A DNA stretch of 64,000 bases, taken from contig PBKS01000009.1 in the NCBI GenBank assembly GCA_002722155.1, positions 2,748-66,747 on the forward strand, written 5' to 3'. Source of the stretch: Chloroflexota bacterium (GTDB taxonomy: Bacteria; Chloroflexota; Dehalococcoidia; Lucifugimonadales; UBA826). The notes under the pieces were generated by a model, which saw only the letters and a list, made by a program, of their open reading frames with translations, did no database searches and was not told the DNA's origin. Position numbers and translations under genes: made by a program. This document shows positions 349-49,167 of the stretch, piece after piece (position 1 is the first letter of the stretch; the number at the start of each line of letters is the position of its first letter).

Positions 349-1365
349 TTAGAATCTCACTACCATTTGGACTTGAGTAGATGGTTTTATTAATGATTCA
401 AAAGCATCCTGTATCCCGTCCAAGGCCAGAAAATCAGTACTTAATATCATCGGTTCCAAGTCAATTTTGCCGCTAGATATTAGATCGAGAGCTACTTTCC
501 AATCGTATGGTTCAGCACCGAAAGTGGTATTCAATTGAATTTCTTTACCAGCCCAATCTACAGGAAGCATGGGCACACTTTCCCAAGCTAATGCCACCAA
601 CATGACATTACCTTTTTTTCGCACCATATTTAGAGCGGCATCAAGGGTAGGCGGAGCTGCCGCACATTCAAATACGACATGAGGACCATCCCCTTCAGAC
701 AAATTAATTATTGCCGGAATTGCATCCTCCTTAGAAGGGTCAACCACCGCATCAGCACCTAATTTAATTGCAGTATCCCTTCGGGTAGCAGATGGTTCTG
801 ACACAATTACCTTACGAGCCCCAGCTGCTTTGGCCGCTTGTATAGTTAGCAAACCGATGGGGCCTGCCCCAAGAACTGCCACCACATCACCTAATTTCAT
901 ATTTGATAATCTAACCGCCCTGACAGCCACAGAACAAGGTTCTGTCAGAGAGGCATGCAAATCAGTAACGTTATCAGGAATACCCAGCGGCGCCCAATCA
1001 TTCAACAAAGTATATTCAGCATATCCTCTTTTTCGAGTATCGGTAAAGCCTTCTAATCGATAATTGTATTGCTCTTGCCTTCTCAAAGGAGCTTCCATTC
1101 CAGACGGTGGGGTACCTCCACCTCCTATAACTCTGTCACCTTCTTTCCATGCAGTCACTCCAGGGCCAACAGCAGCCACCCTACCACTAAACTCATGCCC
1201 CATCACCGCACCTGCTGGTGCAATGTCATAAAGAAAAGCATGTACATCGGTACCACAAATAGCACTATGACTGATTTTTACCAAAACCTCACCTGGTCCC
1301 GGTTCAGGGACAGGCAATTCTTCAATTACAAGTTTCTGGTTACCTTGGTAGACAGCTGCTTTCAT
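349..1365 (-). CDS. Zn-dependent alcohol dehydrogenase, MDR family (threonine/sorbitol dehydrogenase-like)
   Basis: MKAAVY..., CGTDVH, GHEFSG, GAGPIGL Rossmann motif. I prefer ATG 1365 over 1380 because GGAGGAG lies 6 nt upstream. Confidence 0.85.
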   Translation of the reverse strand: MKAAVYQGNQKLVIEELPVPEPGPGEVLVKISHSAICGTDVHAFLYDIAPAGAVMGHEFSGRVAAVGPGVTAWKEGDRVIGGGGTPPSGMEAPLRRQEQYNYRLEGFTDTRKRGYAEYTLLNDWAPLGIPDNVTDLHASLTEPCSVAVRAVRLSNMKLGDVVAVLGAGPIGLLTIQAAKAAGARKVIVSEPSATRRDTAIKLGADAVVDPSKEDAIPAIINLSEGDGPHVVFECAAAPPTLDAALNMVRKKGNVMLVALAWESVPMLPVDWAGKEIQLNTTFGAEPYDWKVALDLISSGKIDLEPMILSTDFLALDGIQDAFESLIKPSTQVQMVVRF

Positions 1366-17775: not shown

Positions 17776-19791
17776 TTAAAACTGTGTTTGAACCGGTAGG
17801 GATCCTACTACTGCAGATGACTGTATCGAATCTATATTGACTGCACCTGGGCCAGTCACTCTTGCTTTTCTCGGAACACCACTGATTCCACTAGAATTAC
17901 CTTTTCTTGAGACTCGTGGAATTTCATAAGAATCTGTATCTGCTATTAAGGAATTAATCCTTTCAACAAGAGCCTGGATTTTTTCCAAGGTGTCTTCTGT
18001 AAAATTACCTTTGAAATTATCAAGATTTTCCAGAAGGTATGAGGCTGGAACGTATCGATCGAAGACCCCACCAGCTAACCCTGTCCTACGGAAATATGCC
18101 TTCAATCTCTCCACAATTCGTGGATTACTATCTGTGATGGTCCTCATAGTAAGAGGTTCTTCCAAGTATGTCGCGTATGACAAGTTAACTAATTCTAGGT
18201 AAACTTTAGGATCAAACAAATCTTCTATATCCGCATCTCTCACTCGGGTGACTTGGACCCACTTAACGGGGTTTTCACCTTCCATTTCGTTCTTCTTATT
18301 TATAGCCTCTATTTTCTCTCGGTTTGTCGGGGTCAAGTCCATCATAACGGCTACACTAACGTAATTCTCCCCTAAAAGACTGACAAAAGTGGATAGATTA
18401 TCCGTACTACCGACAGGGATAATTACCCATCTCGGATCTATTCTAGCTCCTGATATTTCTGTCACCATATCTCCAAGGACTTGCAAATATATGAGATCGG
18501 ACGGGGAGTTAACCATGAGACAATGCGGAGCCAGAAAAAGGGTTTGAGCCATTTGATAACCCAAAGCCATTTGTAACGGAAACACCGTTTCTCTGTCATT
18601 ATTTACAGCATCGTCGGTTATTACAGTACCAACACCATCCATATCCTGGACCAATCTAATCCTATGTAGCTTATCAAGATCAATCATAAATGGGGAATGA
18701 GTTGAATATAGTACCTGGCACCTCGGAGAAAGCCTCTCATCCATAAACCTCAAAAAATCTTTTTGGGCCATAGCGTGAAGAGCAGTACCAGGTTCATCAA
18801 GAAGAATTATCAAATCACCACTTTCTGTTTCTTCAAGGTGCGAAAAATACGACAGAAACGAGAAAAACCAAACAAATCCCTTTGACCTCTCATCAAACGA
18901 AACAGTGACCCGATGTCTTGCATTTTCGATTCGTACATGTAGGATTTTTCCCTCATTAAGGGGCGGAGGATCTCTTGGATCTGCCTGAGACACATCAAAT
19001 TCAACTTTTAATTGGCGATTTTGCTGCCAATATTCAAAGATTTCATCTGTAATCGTTATAGAAGCAGATTCCAGCTCTACTTTGATGTCTTCATATCCGA
19101 GGTCTTTCTCCAGATCTCCCAAGGAAACCCCAGATAGAGTCAAAAGGGATAAAAAAGTCCTATCCGCATCATCTAAGGGTCCTCCACTCTCAGACCTTTG
19201 TCTAAGTTCATTTATAGATATTTTTCCGCGCATCAGGCTGTAGTTGTCAAAATAAACAAATTTAGGCAACCATCTCTCTAAAAATTGTTCGGCAATTCTT
19301 TCAGAGACACTAATATTGGATTCCACATTTTGAACTGCGTTTTGAAAGGAGGTCGGAGTAGGGTTTGAAGGGTTCGTAAAGCTACTAATGCTAGAAGGCT
19401 GGGAAACCGATTCAGATAGATCTATTTTCCAAGCACGTTCATTTTTATAATTCTTGGTGACAATAACTTTGTCTGAAGCTAATATTCCATTACCGAAGTT
19501 AGCTTCAATTTCAGATAATTCTTCCGGACTTAATTCAAACTCAGCCTGCGCCACTTCGCACGGATTTTGTTCATGGATTTTCTTATATTTTATATAGCCT
19601 TTCCTAGGATAATCTCTGATCGTGAAGGCATCCTCTTCCCCAGATATTGAATTTATCTTCCTTATAGCTTGAAGAAATGCTGTTTTACCAGATTCATTTT
19701 TGCCAACCAAGGCGGTAACATCATCAACTTTGACCCATGATGAATCATCAATACTTCTATAATTTACTACCCTAGCCTGAGTGAGTTTCAT
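17776..19791 (-). CDS. OLD/ABC-type (AAA_15/21-like) ATPase with Toprim-like C-terminal region
   Basis: N-terminal VVNYRSIDD ... LVGKNESGKTAFLQAI (Walker A), SKGFVWFFSFLSYF, LIILLDEPGTALH (Walker B), LYSTHSPFMID. C-terminal LMVNSPSDLIYL ... IIPVGSTDNL ... DADIEDLF resembles OLD/DUF4435 Toprim blocks. Confidence 0.65.
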   Translation of the reverse strand: MKLTQARVVNYRSIDDSSWVKVDDVTALVGKNESGKTAFLQAIRKINSISGEEDAFTIRDYPRKGYIKYKKIHEQNPCEVAQAEFELSPEELSEIEANFGNGILASDKVIVTKNYKNERAWKIDLSESVSQPSSISSFTNPSNPTPTSFQNAVQNVESNISVSERIAEQFLERWLPKFVYFDNYSLMRGKISINELRQRSESGGPLDDADRTFLSLLTLSGVSLGDLEKDLGYEDIKVELESASITITDEIFEYWQQNRQLKVEFDVSQADPRDPPPLNEGKILHVRIENARHRVTVSFDERSKGFVWFFSFLSYFSHLEETESGDLIILLDEPGTALHAMAQKDFLRFMDERLSPRCQVLYSTHSPFMIDLDKLHRIRLVQDMDGVGTVITDDAVNNDRETVFPLQMALGYQMAQTLFLAPHCLMVNSPSDLIYLQVLGDMVTEISGARIDPRWVIIPVGSTDNLSTFVSLLGENYVSVAVMMDLTPTNREKIEAINKKNEMEGENPVKWVQVTRVRDADIEDLFDPKVYLELVNLSYATYLEEPLTMRTITDSNPRIVERLKAYFRRTGLAGGVFDRYVPASYLLENLDNFKGNFTEDTLEKIQALVERINSLIADTDSYEIPRVSRKGNSSGISGVPRKARVTGPGAVNIDSIQSSAVVGSLPVQTQF

Positions 19792-34981: not shown

Positions 34982-35036
34982 CGTGTAATTTAACCCACCG
35001 GTGATAACATTACATCTATTGTTATGGAGGATAAAA

Positions 35037-37052
35037 ATGGCCCCGCCTAGTGAATTTCTTGGTTTAATACCATCCTGGATATTAGTGTATGTTGCAACTT
35101 TTGGGTGCTTCGGAGCGGCAGCTTCCTTTTTGTACATCCGAATGTTCAAACCAATACTTCAAGGGAAGCCTTCACAAAGGACAGACCAACTCGCAAAAAG
35201 AATCACAGGAGCGATTCCATATATCTTGGGGCAGAAAAAAGTTCTTCAAAGCACAGATATAGCTAGGGACAGAGCCGGCATGGCCCATGCAGTCATATTC
35301 TGGGGGTTTTTATCATTTTCAATAAGTTACCTGATATTTATATATGGAGATTCAATTAACCCCAATTTTTCAAAAACATTGCTTACTGAAACTGGTTTGA
35401 AAATTTTTGGGACATATCTGGATATTTTGGCGATAGCACTGCTATCAGTAATATTTTTAGCTGTATTAAGAAGATGGGTATTTACTGCAAACCGTTTGAG
35501 GTTCGACCTGACTCAAAAAAGGGAAGCAGCGATAATCCTTGCCTTGATAGCACTGCTCATGATCAGCACAATAGTCGGAGAAGCTTTCTACGTCGCTTCC
35601 AAAAATGTCCACTCACATTCACCAATAGGCAATTTTCTCGGAGATGCTCTGAGCGAGGGAGGTTTCAATCAAAACGTCTCATCATTCATTTATCAAACGA
35701 GTTGGTGGGTACACCTAGCTATAATTTTGGGTTTTTCAGTATACATCCCAATATCTAAGCATGTACATCTGGTTGGAGCTCCAATTGGTTTTGTGACCCG
35801 ACAGTTAGGAGCAAAGGGAACTTTAACAACCATAACGGATTTTGAAACTGCTGAGTCTTTCGGCGCATCAAAAATGAAAGACTTTAACCAGAAACAGCTA
35901 TTAGATGCTTTCGCTTGCGCAGTTTGTGGAAGGTGTACGGACGTATGCCCTGCAAACCTCACCGGAAAAATATTATCCCCTATGCATGTTGTACAAGGAC
36001 TTCGATACCACATTGCAGATGCTACGTCTGTTGAAAAGGAAGAAGATATCCCAAATATCATTGGGTCTCGTATTGAAAAACAAGCAGTATGGGATTGTTT
36101 AACATGTGGTGCATGTACCGAAGTATGCCCAGTAGGTAACGAACCGTTCCATCCTCTCGTAGATATTCGAAGATACATGGTAATGGAGGAGCCTGATATA
36201 CCAGAAGGTGCAGAAGGAGCTCTAAGAAATTTGGAACAGAGAGGTCACCCATGGAGTGGGACAACATTTACAAGAGAAAGTTGGTATGAAGGACTTGAAG
36301 TAAAAACATTCATCGAAAACCCTGAAGCAGAATATCTTTTGTGGGTTGGCTGTACTAGTGCATTGGAACAAAGGAGTCAGAGTATTCCGAGAGCTATGGT
36401 TTCCATTCTAAATCGTGCAGAGGTAAATTTTGCGATTCTGGGTCCTGAAGAAACCTGTACTGGTGACCCTGCCAGAAGAATGGGTAACGAATACTTGTAC
36501 CAAATGCTGGCCATGCAAAATATTGAAACTTTCAACCGCTACAGCATAAAGAAAATACTAACAAGTTGCCCCCACTGTTTTAACAATATCAAAAATGAAT
36601 ATCCTCACCTTGGGGGCAACTACGAAGTCATTCATTACAGTGAATTAATCTCCGATCTTATTGAGAAAGAGAAAATAAAACCTGTTGTGCCTATAGAAAC
36701 AACTTTGGCCTACCATGACTCCTGTTATCTAGGCAGGCACAATGGTATTTACGAAGCACCCAGACAGGTGGCTAGGTCAATACCAGGACTAGAATTGGTG
36801 GAAATGAAGAAATGCCGAGGAAATGGTTTTTGCTGTGGAGCTGGCGGTGGTCATATGTGGTACGAAGAAGAGGGGAACCAGAGAGTAAATCATTCTCGGA
36901 CAGATCAATTTTTGGAAACTGGAGCAGACACGGTTGGAGTATCATGCCCATTTTGCATGCAGATGATGGAAGAGGGTGTTCAATCAAAAGGTGAAAATGA
37001 ATCCAAAAATGTAAGGGACTTAGTCGAATTAGTAGAAGAAAGCCTAGGCTAA
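35037..37052 (+). CDS. Membrane-anchored (Fe-S)-binding oxidoreductase with CCG domains (HdrD/DsrK/GlpC-like)
   Basis: N-terminal multi-TM domain, CAVCGRCTDVCP and CLTCGACTEVCP 4Fe-4S motifs, two CCG-type Cys-rich domains (CPHCF ..., CCGAGGG). ATG 35037 follows GGAGG. Confidence 0.75.
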   Translation: MAPPSEFLGLIPSWILVYVATFGCFGAAASFLYIRMFKPILQGKPSQRTDQLAKRITGAIPYILGQKKVLQSTDIARDRAGMAHAVIFWGFLSFSISYLIFIYGDSINPNFSKTLLTETGLKIFGTYLDILAIALLSVIFLAVLRRWVFTANRLRFDLTQKREAAIILALIALLMISTIVGEAFYVASKNVHSHSPIGNFLGDALSEGGFNQNVSSFIYQTSWWVHLAIILGFSVYIPISKHVHLVGAPIGFVTRQLGAKGTLTTITDFETAESFGASKMKDFNQKQLLDAFACAVCGRCTDVCPANLTGKILSPMHVVQGLRYHIADATSVEKEEDIPNIIGSRIEKQAVWDCLTCGACTEVCPVGNEPFHPLVDIRRYMVMEEPDIPEGAEGALRNLEQRGHPWSGTTFTRESWYEGLEVKTFIENPEAEYLLWVGCTSALEQRSQSIPRAMVSILNRAEVNFAILGPEETCTGDPARRMGNEYLYQMLAMQNIETFNRYSIKKILTSCPHCFNNIKNEYPHLGGNYEVIHYSELISDLIEKEKIKPVVPIETTLAYHDSCYLGRHNGIYEAPRQVARSIPGLELVEMKKCRGNGFCCGAGGGHMWYEEEGNQRVNHSRTDQFLETGADTVGVSCPFCMQMMEEGVQSKGENESKNVRDLVELVEESLG

Positions 37053-40647: not shown

Positions 40648-41901
40648 TTACAGGCCGGCATCAAAAACAGAATCTTCCGCCAGTATATCGCCAAGTTTGT
40701 CTACAAATTCCTGTTTCTCTTCTTCCGAGACCTTACCTTTTTCCTCAATTTTTTGTTTGAATTGGGTAAACAGCCATTCATCTTTGGTACCATGGGGAAT
40801 TTCAAAAAATTCCCTCTCAAAAGATGGGAGTTTACCAGGTCCGTAGTAGCCTTTACCTCGAATTTCGTAACCTTCAAGATTATCAGTGCCCTTCCCCAAA
40901 ACCTCTCCGGTTTCAACAAAATGTTCCATAACTGGAGCCATGCCATACCGTTGAACAGGACACACCAGCATACAAACCCCACAACCTTCATAAGTTGCCA
41001 TTACAGGCCTACATCGGTCATACACTAATTTATGCTTTTCAACTCCTCTCCAGAACACTTTCTCTTTGACCAAAGCTCTTCCTGGACACCGGTTTACGCA
41101 AACTTGACACATTTCACAAAATTTATGAATTCCATAATCAACCGGCTCGTCGTATGTAACAATCGCATCAGTACTTATTATCATCAGTCTGGATCGGTTG
41201 CCAAAGTGAGGTGACAAAAGTTGCCCGTTCGCACCCAGTTGGCCTAACCCTGCCTCAACGAACATCGGAATATAGGCCGCGCTGTTATCATTGGGGCTGT
41301 GTACTTGTGCTCTATAGCCAAGTTCTCTAATAAAATCGGCTAAATCCAGGGCTAGAGCCCCTTCTTGTTCATATGTTCCAAAGTGTGCAAATTCCGCCTC
41401 CATACTCGGTATGGTTTGGGTTTGCCAGTAGTCCTGTTCTAGGGCCAAACATATAGCATGTTCGTACTTTACCCACGCTTTTTTACTTTTGTATGCATAT
41501 TTCCGATCATATTTTGTAAAACCAACCTCGCCGAACCCTAGCTCTCTTGCCTTTTCTCTTATCGCTTCCGTAACATCCGTACCGGCCTTGGGTTCACTGG
41601 TAGGCAACTTATCTCCTGACACATAAGCTGCTTCCACCAAAGGCTTATTTGCCTCATCATGGTGTTTACGATATTCATACATTTCACCCGTGTAGACAGT
41701 CCAAGTCCATTCTCTGTCAGCTGCCTTTTCTATGTTCTGGCTTATGATCGGGTAATTACGAGAATACCAAGCTACGTCATTATCTTTTTTGACAATACCT
41801 GGTACAGTAGCCAACTCCTCGGCGACCGGGATCTCCACAGACTCATGATCTTTTGTCCGGCCTGGACGTCTAACTGTATGATGTATCTCTTTTAACGTCA
41901 T
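40648..41901 (-). CDS. Reductive dehalogenase / QueG superfamily protein (cobalamin plus 2x[4Fe-4S] type), no Tat signal
   Basis: ARELGFGEVGFTKYD ... FIRELGYRAQ ... FVEAGLGQLGANGQLLSPHFGNRSRLMIISTD ... FCEMCQVCVNRCP ... CRPVMATYEGCGVCMLVCP (CX9CX2CX3CP). Confidence 0.65.
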   Translation of the reverse strand: MTLKEIHHTVRRPGRTKDHESVEIPVAEELATVPGIVKKDNDVAWYSRNYPIISQNIEKAADREWTWTVYTGEMYEYRKHHDEANKPLVEAAYVSGDKLPTSEPKAGTDVTEAIREKARELGFGEVGFTKYDRKYAYKSKKAWVKYEHAICLALEQDYWQTQTIPSMEAEFAHFGTYEQEGALALDLADFIRELGYRAQVHSPNDNSAAYIPMFVEAGLGQLGANGQLLSPHFGNRSRLMIISTDAIVTYDEPVDYGIHKFCEMCQVCVNRCPGRALVKEKVFWRGVEKHKLVYDRCRPVMATYEGCGVCMLVCPVQRYGMAPVMEHFVETGEVLGKGTDNLEGYEIRGKGYYGPGKLPSFEREFFEIPHGTKDEWLFTQFKQKIEEKGKVSEEEKQEFVDKLGDILAEDSVFDAGL

Positions 41902-45167: not shown

Positions 45168-46730
45168 ATGAATAATGGTCTCCATAAAAAAATTGCATTA
45201 ATTCCGGTTTTTGCCGGAATATTTTTTGCAGCAGATGATCAGACTGTTATCGTAACCATATTACCTCAAATAATGTCCGATCTACAGATAAACGTCATAG
45301 ATCTGGATAAAGCCATGTGGACGGTTACAGGGTATTTATTAGGATACGTATCTGTTATGCCGATCATGGGTAGAGTTTCTGATATCTATGGTCGCAAAGT
45401 TATTTATATAGCAGCCATGTCAGTTTTTATATTGGGTTCGATCGGAACAGGTTTAACAAATTCTATGACTTTCCTGGAAGGGTATTCGTATCATGACAGC
45501 TCTCTCGTTAGCCACACAGCAACCAATATTATAGAAGCTACAACTTCAATAAATTGGGTGATCGGAACTCGAATCTTCCAGGCTCTTGGAGGTGGGGCCC
45601 TAATTCCAATAAGTATTGCTATTATCACCGACCTTTATTCAGGTAGAGAAAGAATTGTCCCGCTCGGATTAACCGGTGCTTCTGCCGAAGCTGGAGCAGT
45701 GATAGGTCCTCTATCAGGAGGAATAATAACCCAATATTTTTCATGGCAATCAGTATTCTGGCTAAACGTACCAATTGGGTTATTTGTAATAATAGGGGTG
45801 GTATTTTTGATACCCAACTTGAAAAGAACTAACTATAAAATGGATTACGTTGGTTCATTTCTAATAGTTACCGCCATTTGCCTAATCACATTGGGATGCT
45901 CTCAGTCTGGAAATAACACGCTTTATTTGATGATTTTTATAGCTACAGGGTTGTTATTATTTTTTGTATATTACTTAATTTCAACAAAAATTGATAAATT
46001 AATTTTACCAATTGAAATGTTTAAGAATATTTATTTCCTAGCAGCAAATATTTTGCATTTATTATATGGTGCGGCACTCATAATCGCTCTAATTACTATA
46101 CCTTTGATGGTGAATACTGTATTAGGCGGAACATCATTGGAAGGCGGCTTAATTTTAATGCGTATGACAATCGCAATTCCCATAGGAGCGATAGTAGGAG
46201 CATGGGCAAGCAAGCATTATGATTTCAGAATACCTGGTCTTAGTGGTCTTATTTTTTGTTTCGTAGGTCTACTATTTATGAGCGGTTGGAATGATTCGAT
46301 TGCTGACCCCATTATGTCACTTCAATTGCTGATAGCCGGGTTTGGATTCGGACTGCTAATAGCCCCGATCACAGCTGCAGCTATCAACAATTCAATGCTG
46401 GAATATAGGGGAGCGGCGGCGGGAATCATTAGTTCCTCAAGATTCCTAGGAATGACATTTGGCATTGCCGCAATATCTGCTTGGGGATCTAGGAGGTTCC
46501 AAGATTTACTTTTAGGAGTTGATTCAACTGTTAAAGAGATCGGGGGTATTGAAAATGCCACCGGGATTTTTGAGAGTCAATTACTCGAAGCAGGTATAAC
46601 TTTGTTTCATAATTTCTTTTTTATTGGCGCACTATTATGTCTAGTCGGCGTATTACCATGCCTTTTATTAGTCAAAAGTATCGAAAAAACCAATCTAATT
46701 GGTAAATCTACCACCATCCACATTGATTGA
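45168..46730 (+). CDS. MFS transporter, 14-TM DHA2 (EmrB/P55-like) drug:H+ antiporter family
   Basis: GRVSDIYGRK motif A, 520 aa, about 14 hydrophobic segments. Confidence 0.8.
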   Translation: MNNGLHKKIALIPVFAGIFFAADDQTVIVTILPQIMSDLQINVIDLDKAMWTVTGYLLGYVSVMPIMGRVSDIYGRKVIYIAAMSVFILGSIGTGLTNSMTFLEGYSYHDSSLVSHTATNIIEATTSINWVIGTRIFQALGGGALIPISIAIITDLYSGRERIVPLGLTGASAEAGAVIGPLSGGIITQYFSWQSVFWLNVPIGLFVIIGVVFLIPNLKRTNYKMDYVGSFLIVTAICLITLGCSQSGNNTLYLMIFIATGLLLFFVYYLISTKIDKLILPIEMFKNIYFLAANILHLLYGAALIIALITIPLMVNTVLGGTSLEGGLILMRMTIAIPIGAIVGAWASKHYDFRIPGLSGLIFCFVGLLFMSGWNDSIADPIMSLQLLIAGFGFGLLIAPITAAAINNSMLEYRGAAAGIISSSRFLGMTFGIAAISAWGSRRFQDLLLGVDSTVKEIGGIENATGIFESQLLEAGITLFHNFFFIGALLCLVGVLPCLLLVKSIEKTNLIGKSTTIHID

Positions 46731-47501
46731 TTGCCCAGTAATGTTTTGGGCTATATCGGAGGCCAAAAAAGCCACCGCATTACCAATATCTTCGGGGGTT
46801 TGTTCTCTCTGGAGGGGAATCCATGATTTAACAGTTTGATCAAAAAGTTTTTTTCCTTCAAGACCTGTAGTATCTAGATTCCCTCCAAATTGAGACCTCT
46901 TTTTTGCAATGGACTCCCATATGGGAGTCCATATCAAACCCGGGCAAACAGCGTTGACATTCACATTGTATGGGGCCATTTGTAATGCATGAGATTGTGT
47001 CCAACTCACAACTGCCGCCTTTGATGTACTGTAATGAGGTGAATCAGGACTTCCTTGTCGAGCTGCTATGGAGGCAATGTTAACTATCTTGCCTTGATTT
47101 TGACTCTTTAATTCTATGCTGACTCTTTCAGAAACCTTTACAACCCCTCTGACATTAACCTCATAAACTTCTGCCCAATCCTGACTATTTGGGATTTCCC
47201 TATTCGACCAACCTTCGGATCCAATTATGCCGGCATTGTTAACCAATATATCAATTTTCTTTCTTTCTTTAATATGCTCTGAAATGATTTTATCGATGGA
47301 ATGTTCATTAGTAACATCCAATTCTTTTGCTGTGATATCGCCACCATAACTGCAATATCTCATCGTCTCTTCAGCGCTTCCACGAGAAATATCTGTCACC
47401 AACACATTGGCCCCCGCCAAGGCTAATACGGAGCATATACCCCTACCTATACCGCTACCCCCACCCGTGACTATAGCCTCTTTTCCAGATAAATCGATCA
47501 T
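46695..47501 (-). CDS. SDR family oxidoreductase
   Basis: TGGGSGIGRGIC, NNAGI, YSTSKAA, INVDGG. Confidence 0.85.
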   Translation of the reverse strand: MIDLSGKEAIVTGGGSGIGRGICSVLALAGANVLVTDISRGSAEETMRYCSYGGDITAKELDVTNEHSIDKIISEHIKERKKIDILVNNAGIIGSEGWSNREIPNSQDWAEVYEVNVRGVVKVSERVSIELKSQNQGKIVNIASIAARQGSPDSPHYSTSKAAVVSWTQSHALQMAPYNVNVNAVCPGLIWTPIWESIAKKRSQFGGNLDTTGLEGKKLFDQTVKSWIPLQREQTPEDIGNAVAFLASDIAQNITGQSINVDGGRFTN

Positions 47502-47504
47502 TTT

Positions 47505-47849
47505 TTAACCCAAACTCAAAATCTTTTTCCATTCTGAAGTTACAAATCTTTGGCCCTGGTACAGGATAATAGGTCTTTTGATTAGCCTCGGTTCTTCCAT
47601 CATTAAACTTAATAATTTAGGACCGGTAATATCTGACTTTTCCAAACCCAGCTTTTTAAAAGAGGGGCTTCTCCAAGAAAACAACTCCGATGGATCGTCT
47701 CCCAACAAAATATCCTCAAGTTCCGGTAGAGAAAAAGGATTTTTGAAAAAATCCCTTATATCAAAGTTAAATCCAGCTTGCGAAAGCTCCGCTTGCGCTT
47801 TGGTACAGCTACTTCAACCCTTCCAACCATAAAACATTAAATGCTGCAT
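47505..47849 (-). CDS. ArsC/Spx/YffB-family thioredoxin-fold protein with in-frame TGA (putative selenocysteine, U-S-S-C)
   Basis: ATG 47847..47849 with GGGAG 6 nt upstream. Single in-frame TGA at 47814..47816. Joined product MQHLMFYGWKG-U-SSCTKAQAELSQAGFNFDIRDFFKNP ... RLIKRPIILYQGQ is 114 aa. Confidence 0.6.
47775..47810 (-). other. Candidate SECIS-like stem-loop 3' of the in-frame TGA
   Basis: Outer AGCU/AGCU (47807..47810 with 47775..47778), inner AAAGC/GCUUU (47797..47801 with 47783..47787), and a 9-nt G-containing loop. Folded by eye only. Confidence 0.3.
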
Positions 47850-47874
47850 GACATACTCCCATGATCCACATCGA

Positions 47875-49167
47875 TTATTCAACCACCCTGATAACATTGC
47901 CTATCATTTTAACGACATCCAGTTTCCTTAACCTGGATACGGCTTCTGTAACAGAACTCTCGTTGGCCTTATGCGTCATAATAACCAATTCAGCATCTGT
48001 AGATTTATCTCCCAATCCTTTTTGTATAAAAGAGGAAATACTTATCCCACAATCACCAAACACTGTAGCAATTCTGGCTAGTACTCCCGGCTGATCTACA
48101 GCTTCGAGTCTGAAATAATACTTAGTCGACAATGTATCGATTGATACGACTTCTACCGTTTCAGTTAGCCGCACAGGATCTAATAAATCAGTTCCGCCCG
48201 CTATAGTTCTAGCAATGTTCACAATGTCTGCTACAACAGCGCTACTGGTTGGCAGGGAACCAGCTCCAGGCCCGTGAAATAACACTTTATCTACCAAATC
48301 AGTCTCTATTTCAACTGCATTCAACACATCATCTACCTTAGCCAGCATTTGACCACTTGGTATCATGGCGGGATGAACTCGACCAAGCACACGGGATTCC
48401 ATTCTGGTAGCTATCGCTAGTAATTTTATCGAATATCCCAATTCTTCAGCGTATTGAAAATCTTTATCTGTGAGATTAGTAATGCCTTCAGTAAATATGT
48501 CTGTATTTTTTATACTGGACCGAAAGGCCAAAGTGGATAATATTGACAATTTATATGCCGCATCTATACCTTCCACATCATTGGTCGGATCTGATTCAGC
48601 ATATCCCAATGTCTGAGCCTCAGATAGAACTGACTCATAGTTGACCTGCTCATTAGCCATACGAGTCAATATGTAGTTTGTCGTCCCATTAATGATCGCC
48701 TTTATAGATTTGACATCATTCGCAACAAGGTCACGCATCAATGGGGAAATTATCGGTACACCTCCGCCGACACTAGCCTCAAAAAGAACCCTAACATTAT
48801 TCTCTCTAGCTAATGAAAATATTTCAGCCCCATGCTTTGATATTACTTCCTTATTTGCGGTAACCACGTGCTTACCATTTTTTACCGCCCCTAGAATAAA
48901 TTCCAATGCAGGATGTTCGCCACCCATTAATTCCACAATGATTTGTACTGAATCATCCTTTATTAATTTCTCAGGTTCCTCTCCCAAAATGTTTTTACCA
49001 ATTGGGAAAGATCTTTGTTTGCGGCTATCACGCACCGCCACTTTATTTAAATTTAAGGGTAGCCCAACTTGATTTCTTAAGGTGGAAGAACCTTCAATTA
49101 TTAACCTCGCGACACCAGACCCTACAACTCCCATTCCTATAAGGCCAACTCCAATAGAAGTCCTCAT
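47875..49167 (-). CDS. hom: Homoserine dehydrogenase
   Basis: GLIGMGVVGSG NAD motif, central catalytic domain, C-terminal ACT domain (YYFRLEAVDQPGVLARI). Confidence 0.9.
   Translation of the reverse strand: MRTSIGVGLIGMGVVGSGVARLIIEGSSTLRNQVGLPLNLNKVAVRDSRKQRSFPIGKNILGEEPEKLIKDDSVQIIVELMGGEHPALEFILGAVKNGKHVVTANKEVISKHGAEIFSLARENNVRVLFEASVGGGVPIISPLMRDLVANDVKSIKAIINGTTNYILTRMANEQVNYESVLSEAQTLGYAESDPTNDVEGIDAAYKLSILSTLAFRSSIKNTDIFTEGITNLTDKDFQYAEELGYSIKLLAIATRMESRVLGRVHPAMIPSGQMLAKVDDVLNAVEIETDLVDKVLFHGPGAGSLPTSSAVVADIVNIARTIAGGTDLLDPVRLTETVEVVSIDTLSTKYYFRLEAVDQPGVLARIATVFGDCGISISSFIQKGLGDKSTDAELVIMTHKANESSVTEAVSRLRKLDVVKMIGNVIRVVE

Follow-up and report, generated by a model that had tools for sequence, protein, structure and literature searches.

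An ArsC-like reading frame with one internal TGA

The 64,000-nucleotide (nt) window analysed here, a stretch of contig PBKS01000009.1 (assembly GCA_002722155.1) from a Chloroflexota bacterium, carries on its minus strand a predicted gene for a small protein of the ArsC/Spx/YffB fold, whose reading frame is interrupted by a single TGA codon (Table 1). From 47849 to 47505 this strand reads MQHLMFYGWKG, a stop, SSCTKAQAELSQAGFNFDIRDFFKNPFSLPELEDILLGDDPSELFSWRSPSFKKLGLEKSDITGPKLLSLMMEEPRLIKRPIILYQGQRFVTSEWKKILSLG and a second stop, so that the TGA is the only internal stop. When the TGA is taken as selenocysteine (Sec, U), the conceptual translation is MQHLMFYGWKG-U-SSCTKAQAEL...KKILSLG, with the motif U12-x-x-C15. 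An initial annotation, made by a model from the letters and a list of open reading frames (ORFs), had described the locus in these terms, and its structural claims were confirmed by reading and translating the minus strand: there is one in-frame TGA (47816..47814) in a 114-codon product, GGGAG lies 6 nt before the ATG (47860..47856), and 25 nt separate the ATG from the stop codon of the upstream gene (TAA at 47877..47875). The same start position is found in the nearest orthologs (L001-L009), and no other spacing is as frequent in the family as an ATG 11 codons ahead of U.

Table 1. Features at and around the ArsC-like locus, in window coordinates
Feature	Position	Strand	Remarks
ArsC/Spx/YffB-fold selenoprotein coding sequence, predicted	47505..47849	-	114 codons + TAA; translation and Pfam match span the TGA
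GGGAG, Shine-Dalgarno-like	47856..47860	-	6 nt upstream of ATG; read from the sequence, putative role
Start codon ATG	47847..47849	-	11 codons ahead of Sec
In-frame TGA, read as putative selenocysteine codon U12	47814..47816	-	TGA in 81/81; Cys in distant homologs; Spx Cys10 column
TGT codon, Cys15, presumed resolving cysteine of UxxC	47805..47807	-	Cys at +3 in 81/81
Selenocysteine insertion sequence (SECIS) hairpin core, candidate	47780..47798	-	5' arm GCGCAAGC 47798..47791, tip GGA 47790..47788, 3' arm GCUUUCGC 47787..47780
TAA terminator of the ArsC-like gene	47505..47507	-	Frame open from TGA to TAA
67-amino-acid (aa) TTG-initiated ORF, artefactual truncation	47505..47708	-	From the ORF lister; database entry P0003 is the same fragment
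430-aa ORF, upstream neighbour	47875..49167	-	Ends 25 nt before the ArsC-like start; 'hom' (homoserine dehydrogenase) is the initial annotation's label only
Short-chain dehydrogenase (SDR), 268 aa, downstream neighbour	46695..47501	-	Starts 4 nt after the ArsC-like stop

At this locus the ORF lister gives only the 67-aa fragment that begins at TTG, as the initial annotation had noted, and its expectation that standard annotation would truncate the gene is borne out in the public collections. Among 5.8 billion predicted proteins we found 105 relatives, of which 104 are N-terminally shortened; with one exception their lengths are 67-102 aa, and the fragments begin at scattered sites just downstream of U-x-x-C, at the next available ATG, GTG or TTG. 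The sole full-length entry, P0040, has Trp written at the Sec column. The underlying DNA (locus L082:233-583) has TGA at this codon, so a TGG variant was rejected, and the deposited protein is not obtained under translation table 11; the Trp is therefore an artefact of the gene caller. Two further entries, P0107 and P0142, also have Trp at the Sec column, probably from the same alternative-code cause. With 104 of the 105 relatives truncated and Trp in the remaining one, the redox motif is absent or miswritten in nearly every record.

These fragments raise the question of whether the short product is the real one, either as a 67-aa protein initiated at TTG 47708 or as an 11-residue leader that ends at the UGA, both of them lacking Sec. 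Such fragments are what ORF callers and public databases report, and GAGGA does precede the TTG. However, the fragment starts are scattered, with no conserved start, the codons ahead of the TGA show conservation at the protein level, and the 67-aa fragment has neither strand beta1 nor the redox motif nor helix alpha1. We consider a genuine short product highly improbable. On the opposite strand, an antisense ORF (47578..47832, plus strand) encodes 84 aa in the window and reaches about 113 aa at the equivalent site in 27 related loci; most likely it is no gene and arises from the conservation of the ArsC-like coding sequence.

Conservation of the TGA codon and of the hairpin behind it

We scanned one genome per GTDB species and found relatives of the gene in at least 343. 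The best 80 of the 343 loci were analysed, and together with the window they form the family set of 81 sequences used below. These 80 come mostly from SAR202 and other Dehalococcoidia (Chloroflexota), with some from Syntrophales, Smithellaceae and Desulfobacteraceae. The initial annotation had proposed checking whether orthologs keep TGA or carry TGC or TGT, and whether relatives show additional disruptions. The Sec column is TGA in all 81 sequences (TAA, TAG, TGC and TGT: none), no further disruption was seen in the family set, and protein identity within this TGA-bearing set falls to about 40%. The residues flanking the codon are conserved on both sides, with Tyr at -5 and Trp at -3 in 79 of 81 sequences each, and Cys at +3 and Leu at +10 in every one, giving the family motif [FY]Y.W.[RK]-U-x-x-C. 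Complete orthologs of 111-125 aa are encoded at 79 of the 80 loci, and the remaining one (L009) leaves the contig end at 104 residues. The true terminators of the family genes are mixed (TAA 35, TAG 25, TGA 20), and within the window TGA terminates 13 of the 52 ORFs of at least 150 aa.

An in-frame stop at a cysteine position could also mark a decaying pseudogene, once a CxxC gene, that acquired the TGA by nonsense mutation. A single mutation in TGT or TGC is enough to create it, and the hairpin described below is imperfect in the window. On the other hand, the same TGA recurs without any other disruption in all 81 orthologs, which span two phyla, with residues kept on both sides, and both the TGA and the frame are preserved in L081, an independent metagenome contig of the same lineage. 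When the window gene is compared with its nearest relatives, codons with a synonymous difference are about as numerous as those with a non-synonymous one, and these near-equal counts fit with purifying selection. There is thus very little to favor a pseudogene, and we regard this explanation as extremely improbable. A sequencing error at the TGA was excluded by the invariance of the column, the conservation of both flanks and the mixture of true terminators.

We then searched for homologs exhaustively with HMMER, using P0040 as the query. Full-length homologs at 36-47% identity carry Cys at the Sec column in a CxxC motif, for example FYTWKKCSTCRDA and LYWWKKCSSCRKV; they include P0108, P0111, P0122, P0124 and P0128, and the codon is TGT or TGC. 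The initial annotation had placed the TGA at the N-terminal redox Cys of the family, and this placement holds, as the column is the first Cys of CxxC in the distant homologs and corresponds to Cys10 in the C10-x-x-C13 switch of Spx. Two short entries lie close to the Sec forms. P0168 (63 aa) is a Cys variant, FYCWVRCNTCRKAKEFLSQKNVEIDERDFFK, very near the Dehalococcoidales Sec forms, in which the frame breaks after about 40 residues, and P0194 (78 aa) resembles a frameshifted copy of a gene of the L028 type. An assembly error or a real switch from Sec to Cys could account for either entry. At one Cys-form locus (L089:1-304), the ArsC-like gene overlaps by 4 nt the preceding gene for a 718-aa molybdopterin oxidoreductase with Molybdop_Fe4S4, Molybdopterin and Molydop_binding domains, which hints at this enzyme as a functional partner of the Cys-form relatives.

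A hairpin begins 15 nt after the UGA. We aligned the 51 nt around the TGA, which gave 77 distinct sequences without gaps, and counted positions with the U of UGA as 0. In an 8-bp helix between +18..+25 and +29..+36, 96.9% of cells are standard pairs, compared to 86.7 ± 0.8% after shuffling of columns (0 of 500 shuffles reached the observed value) and 34-65% when the partners are slid by 1-3 columns. Changes on both sides of a pair number 81, against 30.6 expected (0 of 500 shuffles), and four pairs show compensatory change, with C-G to U-A, G-C to A-U and, at the closing pair, C-G to A-U among the examples. RNAalifold independently predicts the hairpin, and four of the seven pairs in its structure vary on both sides. 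In the bSECISearch model, the apical loop follows the UGA at a distance of 16-37 nt; here this distance is about 23 nt. The first nucleotide of the tip, G at +26 and about 24 nt past the UGA, is invariant in all 77 sequences. A guanosine is likewise conserved in the apical loop of bacterial SECIS elements described in the literature (PMC2398784, Fig. 7 legend; PMC1794560).

The Cys-form genes provide a control for the coding constraint on this segment. In seven Cys-form homologs with TGT or TGC, no common hairpin is formed and only 29 of the 56 cells at these positions (52%) are paired, indicating that the hairpin goes with the UGA rather than with the peptide of helix alpha1. The claim of a SECIS-type hairpin at the expected distance is therefore supported by covariation and by its absence from Cys-form genes, and the candidate element behaves as a bacterial SECIS does. 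The stem-loop first proposed at 47775..47810 holds the conserved core (47798..47780), as comparative analysis alone reveals: the window RNA folded by itself is no better than shuffled sequences (z=-0.2, or z=+1.0 for 48 nt), and the minimum free energy (MFE) structure of the longer context is not the conserved hairpin, so single-sequence folding cannot support a SECIS. A permissive Rfam scan of the locus gave chance matches only.

The same codon would need another explanation if this organism read TGA as Trp or Gly (genetic code 4 or 25), in which case the residue would not be Sec. The Trp in P0040, P0107 and P0142 is what this explanation predicts, but that in P0040 is a gene-caller artefact over TGA. 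Moreover, TGA ends 13 of the 52 long window ORFs and 20 of the 80 complete family members, scans of the window for recoded genes revealed no conserved in-frame TGA at Trp or Gly columns of housekeeping proteins, and a UGA-specific hairpin would be needless under such a code. Reassignment has, in our judgement, next to no chance of being correct. Taken together, the TGA column, the conservation of its flanks and the use of TGA as an ordinary terminator leave no room for a pseudogene, for a sequencing error or for codon reassignment.

We conclude that the locus is very probably a genuine Sec-encoding gene, as the initial annotation suggested: the TGA is kept in all 81 sequences, distant homologs pair Cys with Sec at this column, and a covarying hairpin is confined to the TGA forms. 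In this scheme, translation would start at the ATG (47849), and the hairpin (47798..47780) would recruit SelB with Sec-tRNA(Sec) to the UGA (47816..47814), where selenocysteine would be inserted in place of termination. The predicted mature protein is a small, cytoplasmic, thioredoxin-like polypeptide of 114 residues with the motif Sec12-Ser-Ser-Cys15, in which Sec12 and Cys15 would cycle through a selenenylsulfide at the N-terminus of helix alpha1. The host is a marine Dehalococcoidia (Chloroflexota) of SAR202 type. Sec insertion itself, the redox chemistry and the substrate are predictions from sequence.

Several observations weigh against this interpretation. Selenium incorporation is a prediction for every member of the family, and function is deduced from fold and motif. 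The segment tested for covariation is coding, and the structure used in the test had been obtained from the very sequences tested. The hairpin of the window has one C.U mismatch at the fourth pair (47795/47783), unique among the 77 sequences, where a Gln codon (CAA) replaces the Lys or Arg of relatives and where L001 has an A-U pair; folded alone it reaches -7.1 kcal/mol, compared to -9.8 to -11.8 kcal/mol in relatives, and when 48 nt are folded another structure is the MFE one. No machinery for Sec insertion was recognised in the window either. The 64 kb (41.2% GC) contain no tRNA genes, hence no tRNA-Sec, and give no Rfam match at gathering thresholds; SelA, SelB and SelD were not recognised there by ORF size and Pfam searches of ten candidate ORFs. 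Nor did tblastn with approximate E. coli SelA, SelB and SelD queries match the window or the 80 loci, and with these approximate queries no sel genes were found in about 1.3 Mb of related flanks, a weak negative.

Two of these points can be set in context. Contig L081 shares the C.U mismatch and the hairpin while differing at a few other sites, so the mismatch is a real variant of the lineage and no error; together with the lower stability and the different MFE structure, it may make Sec insertion less efficient in the window. As for the machinery, there is indirect support from two sides. A Deltaproteobacteria metagenome-assembled genome (MAG) contig of the family set (L050) encodes a tRNA-Sec (anticodon tca, 1120-1217, minus strand) about 9 kb from its ArsC-like Sec gene, flanked by HAD, MtnA-like (IF-2B), GatB and GatA genes and not by sel genes. 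In BSepDB, moreover, Dehalococcoidia MAGs rank with the bacteria richest in selenoproteins (PMC13326102).

Fold, published relatives and probable role

The product with Cys in place of U matches Pfam ArsC (PF03960) over residues 7-100 with 54.2 bits (cutoff 24; E=1.9e-14). An AlphaFold2 model of the ortholog P0040, with Trp standing for U, has a predicted local distance difference test score (pLDDT) of 77.7 and the topology beta1, loop, alpha1, beta2, helical insert, beta3, beta4 and final helix, and the Sec position lies in the beta1-alpha1 loop immediately before alpha1. In Foldseek searches with this model, template modelling (TM) scores were 0.85 for Spx, 0.85 for YffB and 0.77-0.85 for ArsC. 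The modelled protein thus has a thioredoxin-like core with its redox residue at the N-terminus of alpha1, and the ArsC/Spx/YffB assignment of the initial annotation stands on both the Pfam and the fold match. Within NCBIfam, no matching model reached its cutoff for the window protein. The best was Spx/MgsR (TIGR01617; 56 bits, cutoff 75.05); the Spx-specific models NF002459, NF009210 and NF009885 all scored far below their cutoffs, and the arsenate reductase model TIGR00014 gave 42.4 bits against a cutoff of 106.05.

Spx of Bacillus subtilis (PDB 1z3e, 3gfk, 7f75) is a CxxC redox-switch regulator that binds the C-terminal domain of the RNA polymerase alpha subunit (alpha-CTD), and a selenoprotein that senses redox state and binds RNA polymerase in the same way, rather than acting as an enzyme, is one candidate role. 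Spx is the best PDB match by sequence (E=5.5e-11) and structure (TM 0.85), TIGR01617 is the best NCBIfam match, and U12 and C15 of the window protein align with the Cys10 and Cys13 redox switch, with Sec in place of Cys. Other points count against this role. TIGR01617 falls short of its cutoff, structures of YffB and ArsC are matched as closely as that of Spx (TM 0.85), and Spx has 131 aa against 114 aa in the window protein, which has no C-terminal tail. Gly52 of Spx, the contact to alpha-CTD, aligns with Asp52 of the window protein in a variable segment, a difference that is suggestive only. Finally, the characterised Spx proteins are, to our knowledge, all from Firmicutes, whereas the hosts here are Chloroflexota and Desulfobacterota. 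For these reasons we consider an Spx-like, polymerase-binding role of the protein unlikely.

A second candidate role is that of a true ArsC, a glutaredoxin-coupled arsenate reductase that happens to contain Sec. The protein belongs to Pfam ArsC, the published family name is 'Arsenate reductase 2', and comparison with the glutaredoxin-dependent arsenate reductase ArsC of E. coli R773 (PDB 1i9d) gives a TM score of 0.77, with Cys12 in the column of U12. But true ArsC proteins have the motif C-x-x-S rather than CxxC, and the Sec version of that motif forms the separate family 'Arsenate reductase 1, UxxS'; TIGR00014 is far below its cutoff; and the conserved neighbours of the family are ribosomal protein genes, hom and SDR, or mutS/mutL, with no ars genes among them and no ars operon context for the window gene. 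Arsenate reduction as the function of this selenoprotein is therefore very unlikely.

YffB (PA3664, PDB 1rw1) and other uncharacterised ArsC-family proteins with CxxC resemble the window protein in length (114 aa), fold (TM 0.85) and N-terminal CxxC-type motif, but YffB matches with only E=2.4e-5 and has Cys rather than Sec, and the model NF008107 ('ArsC family reductase') gives 26 bits against a cutoff of 121. NCBIfam also holds a curated model of an ArsC-fold selenoprotein, NF041106 ('ArsC family (seleno)protein', ArsC_rel_Se_1). The window protein obtains 14.8 bits with this model (cutoff 85) and thus represents another subfamily.

Because the Spx, ArsC and YffB cutoffs are all missed, the Spx tail is absent and Gly52 is replaced by a variable Asp, we infer that the selenoprotein most likely acts as a selenol/thiol-disulfide oxidoreductase or a redox sensor. 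All 80 nearest species have Sec and none Cys. That the family as a whole represents a Sec-based, Spx-like redox sensor or regulator rather than a housekeeping oxidoreductase seems distinctly unlikely to us. If it were so, SAR202/Dehalococcoidia and some Syntrophales would tie a thiol switch, and with it a part of their physiology, to the deep-ocean selenium supply, and a selenoprotein transcription factor would be unprecedented.

Families of this kind have been described before. 'ArsC-like' selenoproteins were reported from deltaproteobacterial genomes in 2006 (PMC1794560), and the 2008 Global Ocean Sampling (GOS) selenoproteome of Zhang and Gladyshev (PLoS Genet) lists 'Arsenate reductase 2, cd03032, UxxC' among previously described families, counting 42 Sec sequences from 21 samples next to 238 Cys homologs; 'Arsenate reductase 1, UxxS', the Sec form of the true-ArsC CxxS, is a separate family there (PMC2398784). 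An 'Arsenate reductase-like protein, COG1393, UxxC' still appears in a 2022 review by Zhang (PMC9312934). The initial annotation had also mentioned earlier predictions of ArsC-like Sec proteins from marine metagenomes, and this is correct (PMC2398784); since the family is already published, the finding is less novel than that annotation implied.

The GOS 'Arsenate reductase 2' bin shares fold family, UxxC motif and marine origin with the window protein. In an ungapped alignment of 108 residues, one of its reads, JCVI_READ_1318105 (MIYYTWNKUSTCKK...EPRLIRRPL; Dataset S1, PMC2398784), is 36% identical to the window protein (E=3e-28). The bin is heterogeneous, however, and JCVI_READ_17177 and others share only the motif with the window protein. 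Dataset S1 mixes at least two unrelated subfamilies, the family of the window and a type beginning MVKKVDWYYMRGGUTTCTKASKF..., and the latter may correspond to NF041106. The GOS paper gives the family no taxonomic assignment and no family-specific SECIS model (PMC2398784).

The gene is thus a new member of an already known family of predicted selenoproteins. What our analysis adds is that the family is tied mainly to SAR202/Dehalococcoidia, that it has an explicit covarying SECIS candidate with a Cys-form control, and that public collections hold it almost wholly as truncated or mistranslated entries. The practical point for annotation outweighs the conceptual one, as the gene is real and yet missed or miswritten in nearly all records. 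SAR202/Dehalococcoidia, which account for the bulk of the closest carriers, are an abundant deep-ocean group, and the covarying hairpin could serve for automatic annotation of the family and for selenoprotein counts in their genomes.

Gene neighbourhood and other features of the window

Clustering of neighbours showed that the arrangement in the window recurs at about 26 loci including the window itself, with rpsF-ssb-rpsR-SurA-like-hom upstream of the ArsC-like gene and SDR downstream; counted singly, the position of the hom ORF is kept at about 26 loci and that of SDR at about 20. Pfam adh_short was matched on the identical arrangement in L081. In another clade, the ArsC-like gene lies between mutS and mutL. 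Synteny is therefore clade-specific, and the neighbourhood gave no functional clue.

We found no second recoding candidate in the window among ORFs of at least 90 aa. Other TGA-xx-C contexts lie in junk antisense frames, and in-frame continuations through TGA correspond to ordinary adjacent genes. A 683-aa protein encoded at 35001..37052 (plus strand) has a 4Fe-4S dicluster and two CCG cysteine-rich domains and is HdrD/GlpC-like; elsewhere, a selenoprotein family of GlpC-like type is known, but this gene has no in-frame TGA. A 417-aa ORF at 40648..41901 (minus strand) has no Pfam match at E<=1e-5. At 17776..19791 (minus strand), the window encodes a 671-aa AAA_15/AAA_21 ATPase of the AbiEii/OLD-like family, which could be part of a defence system.

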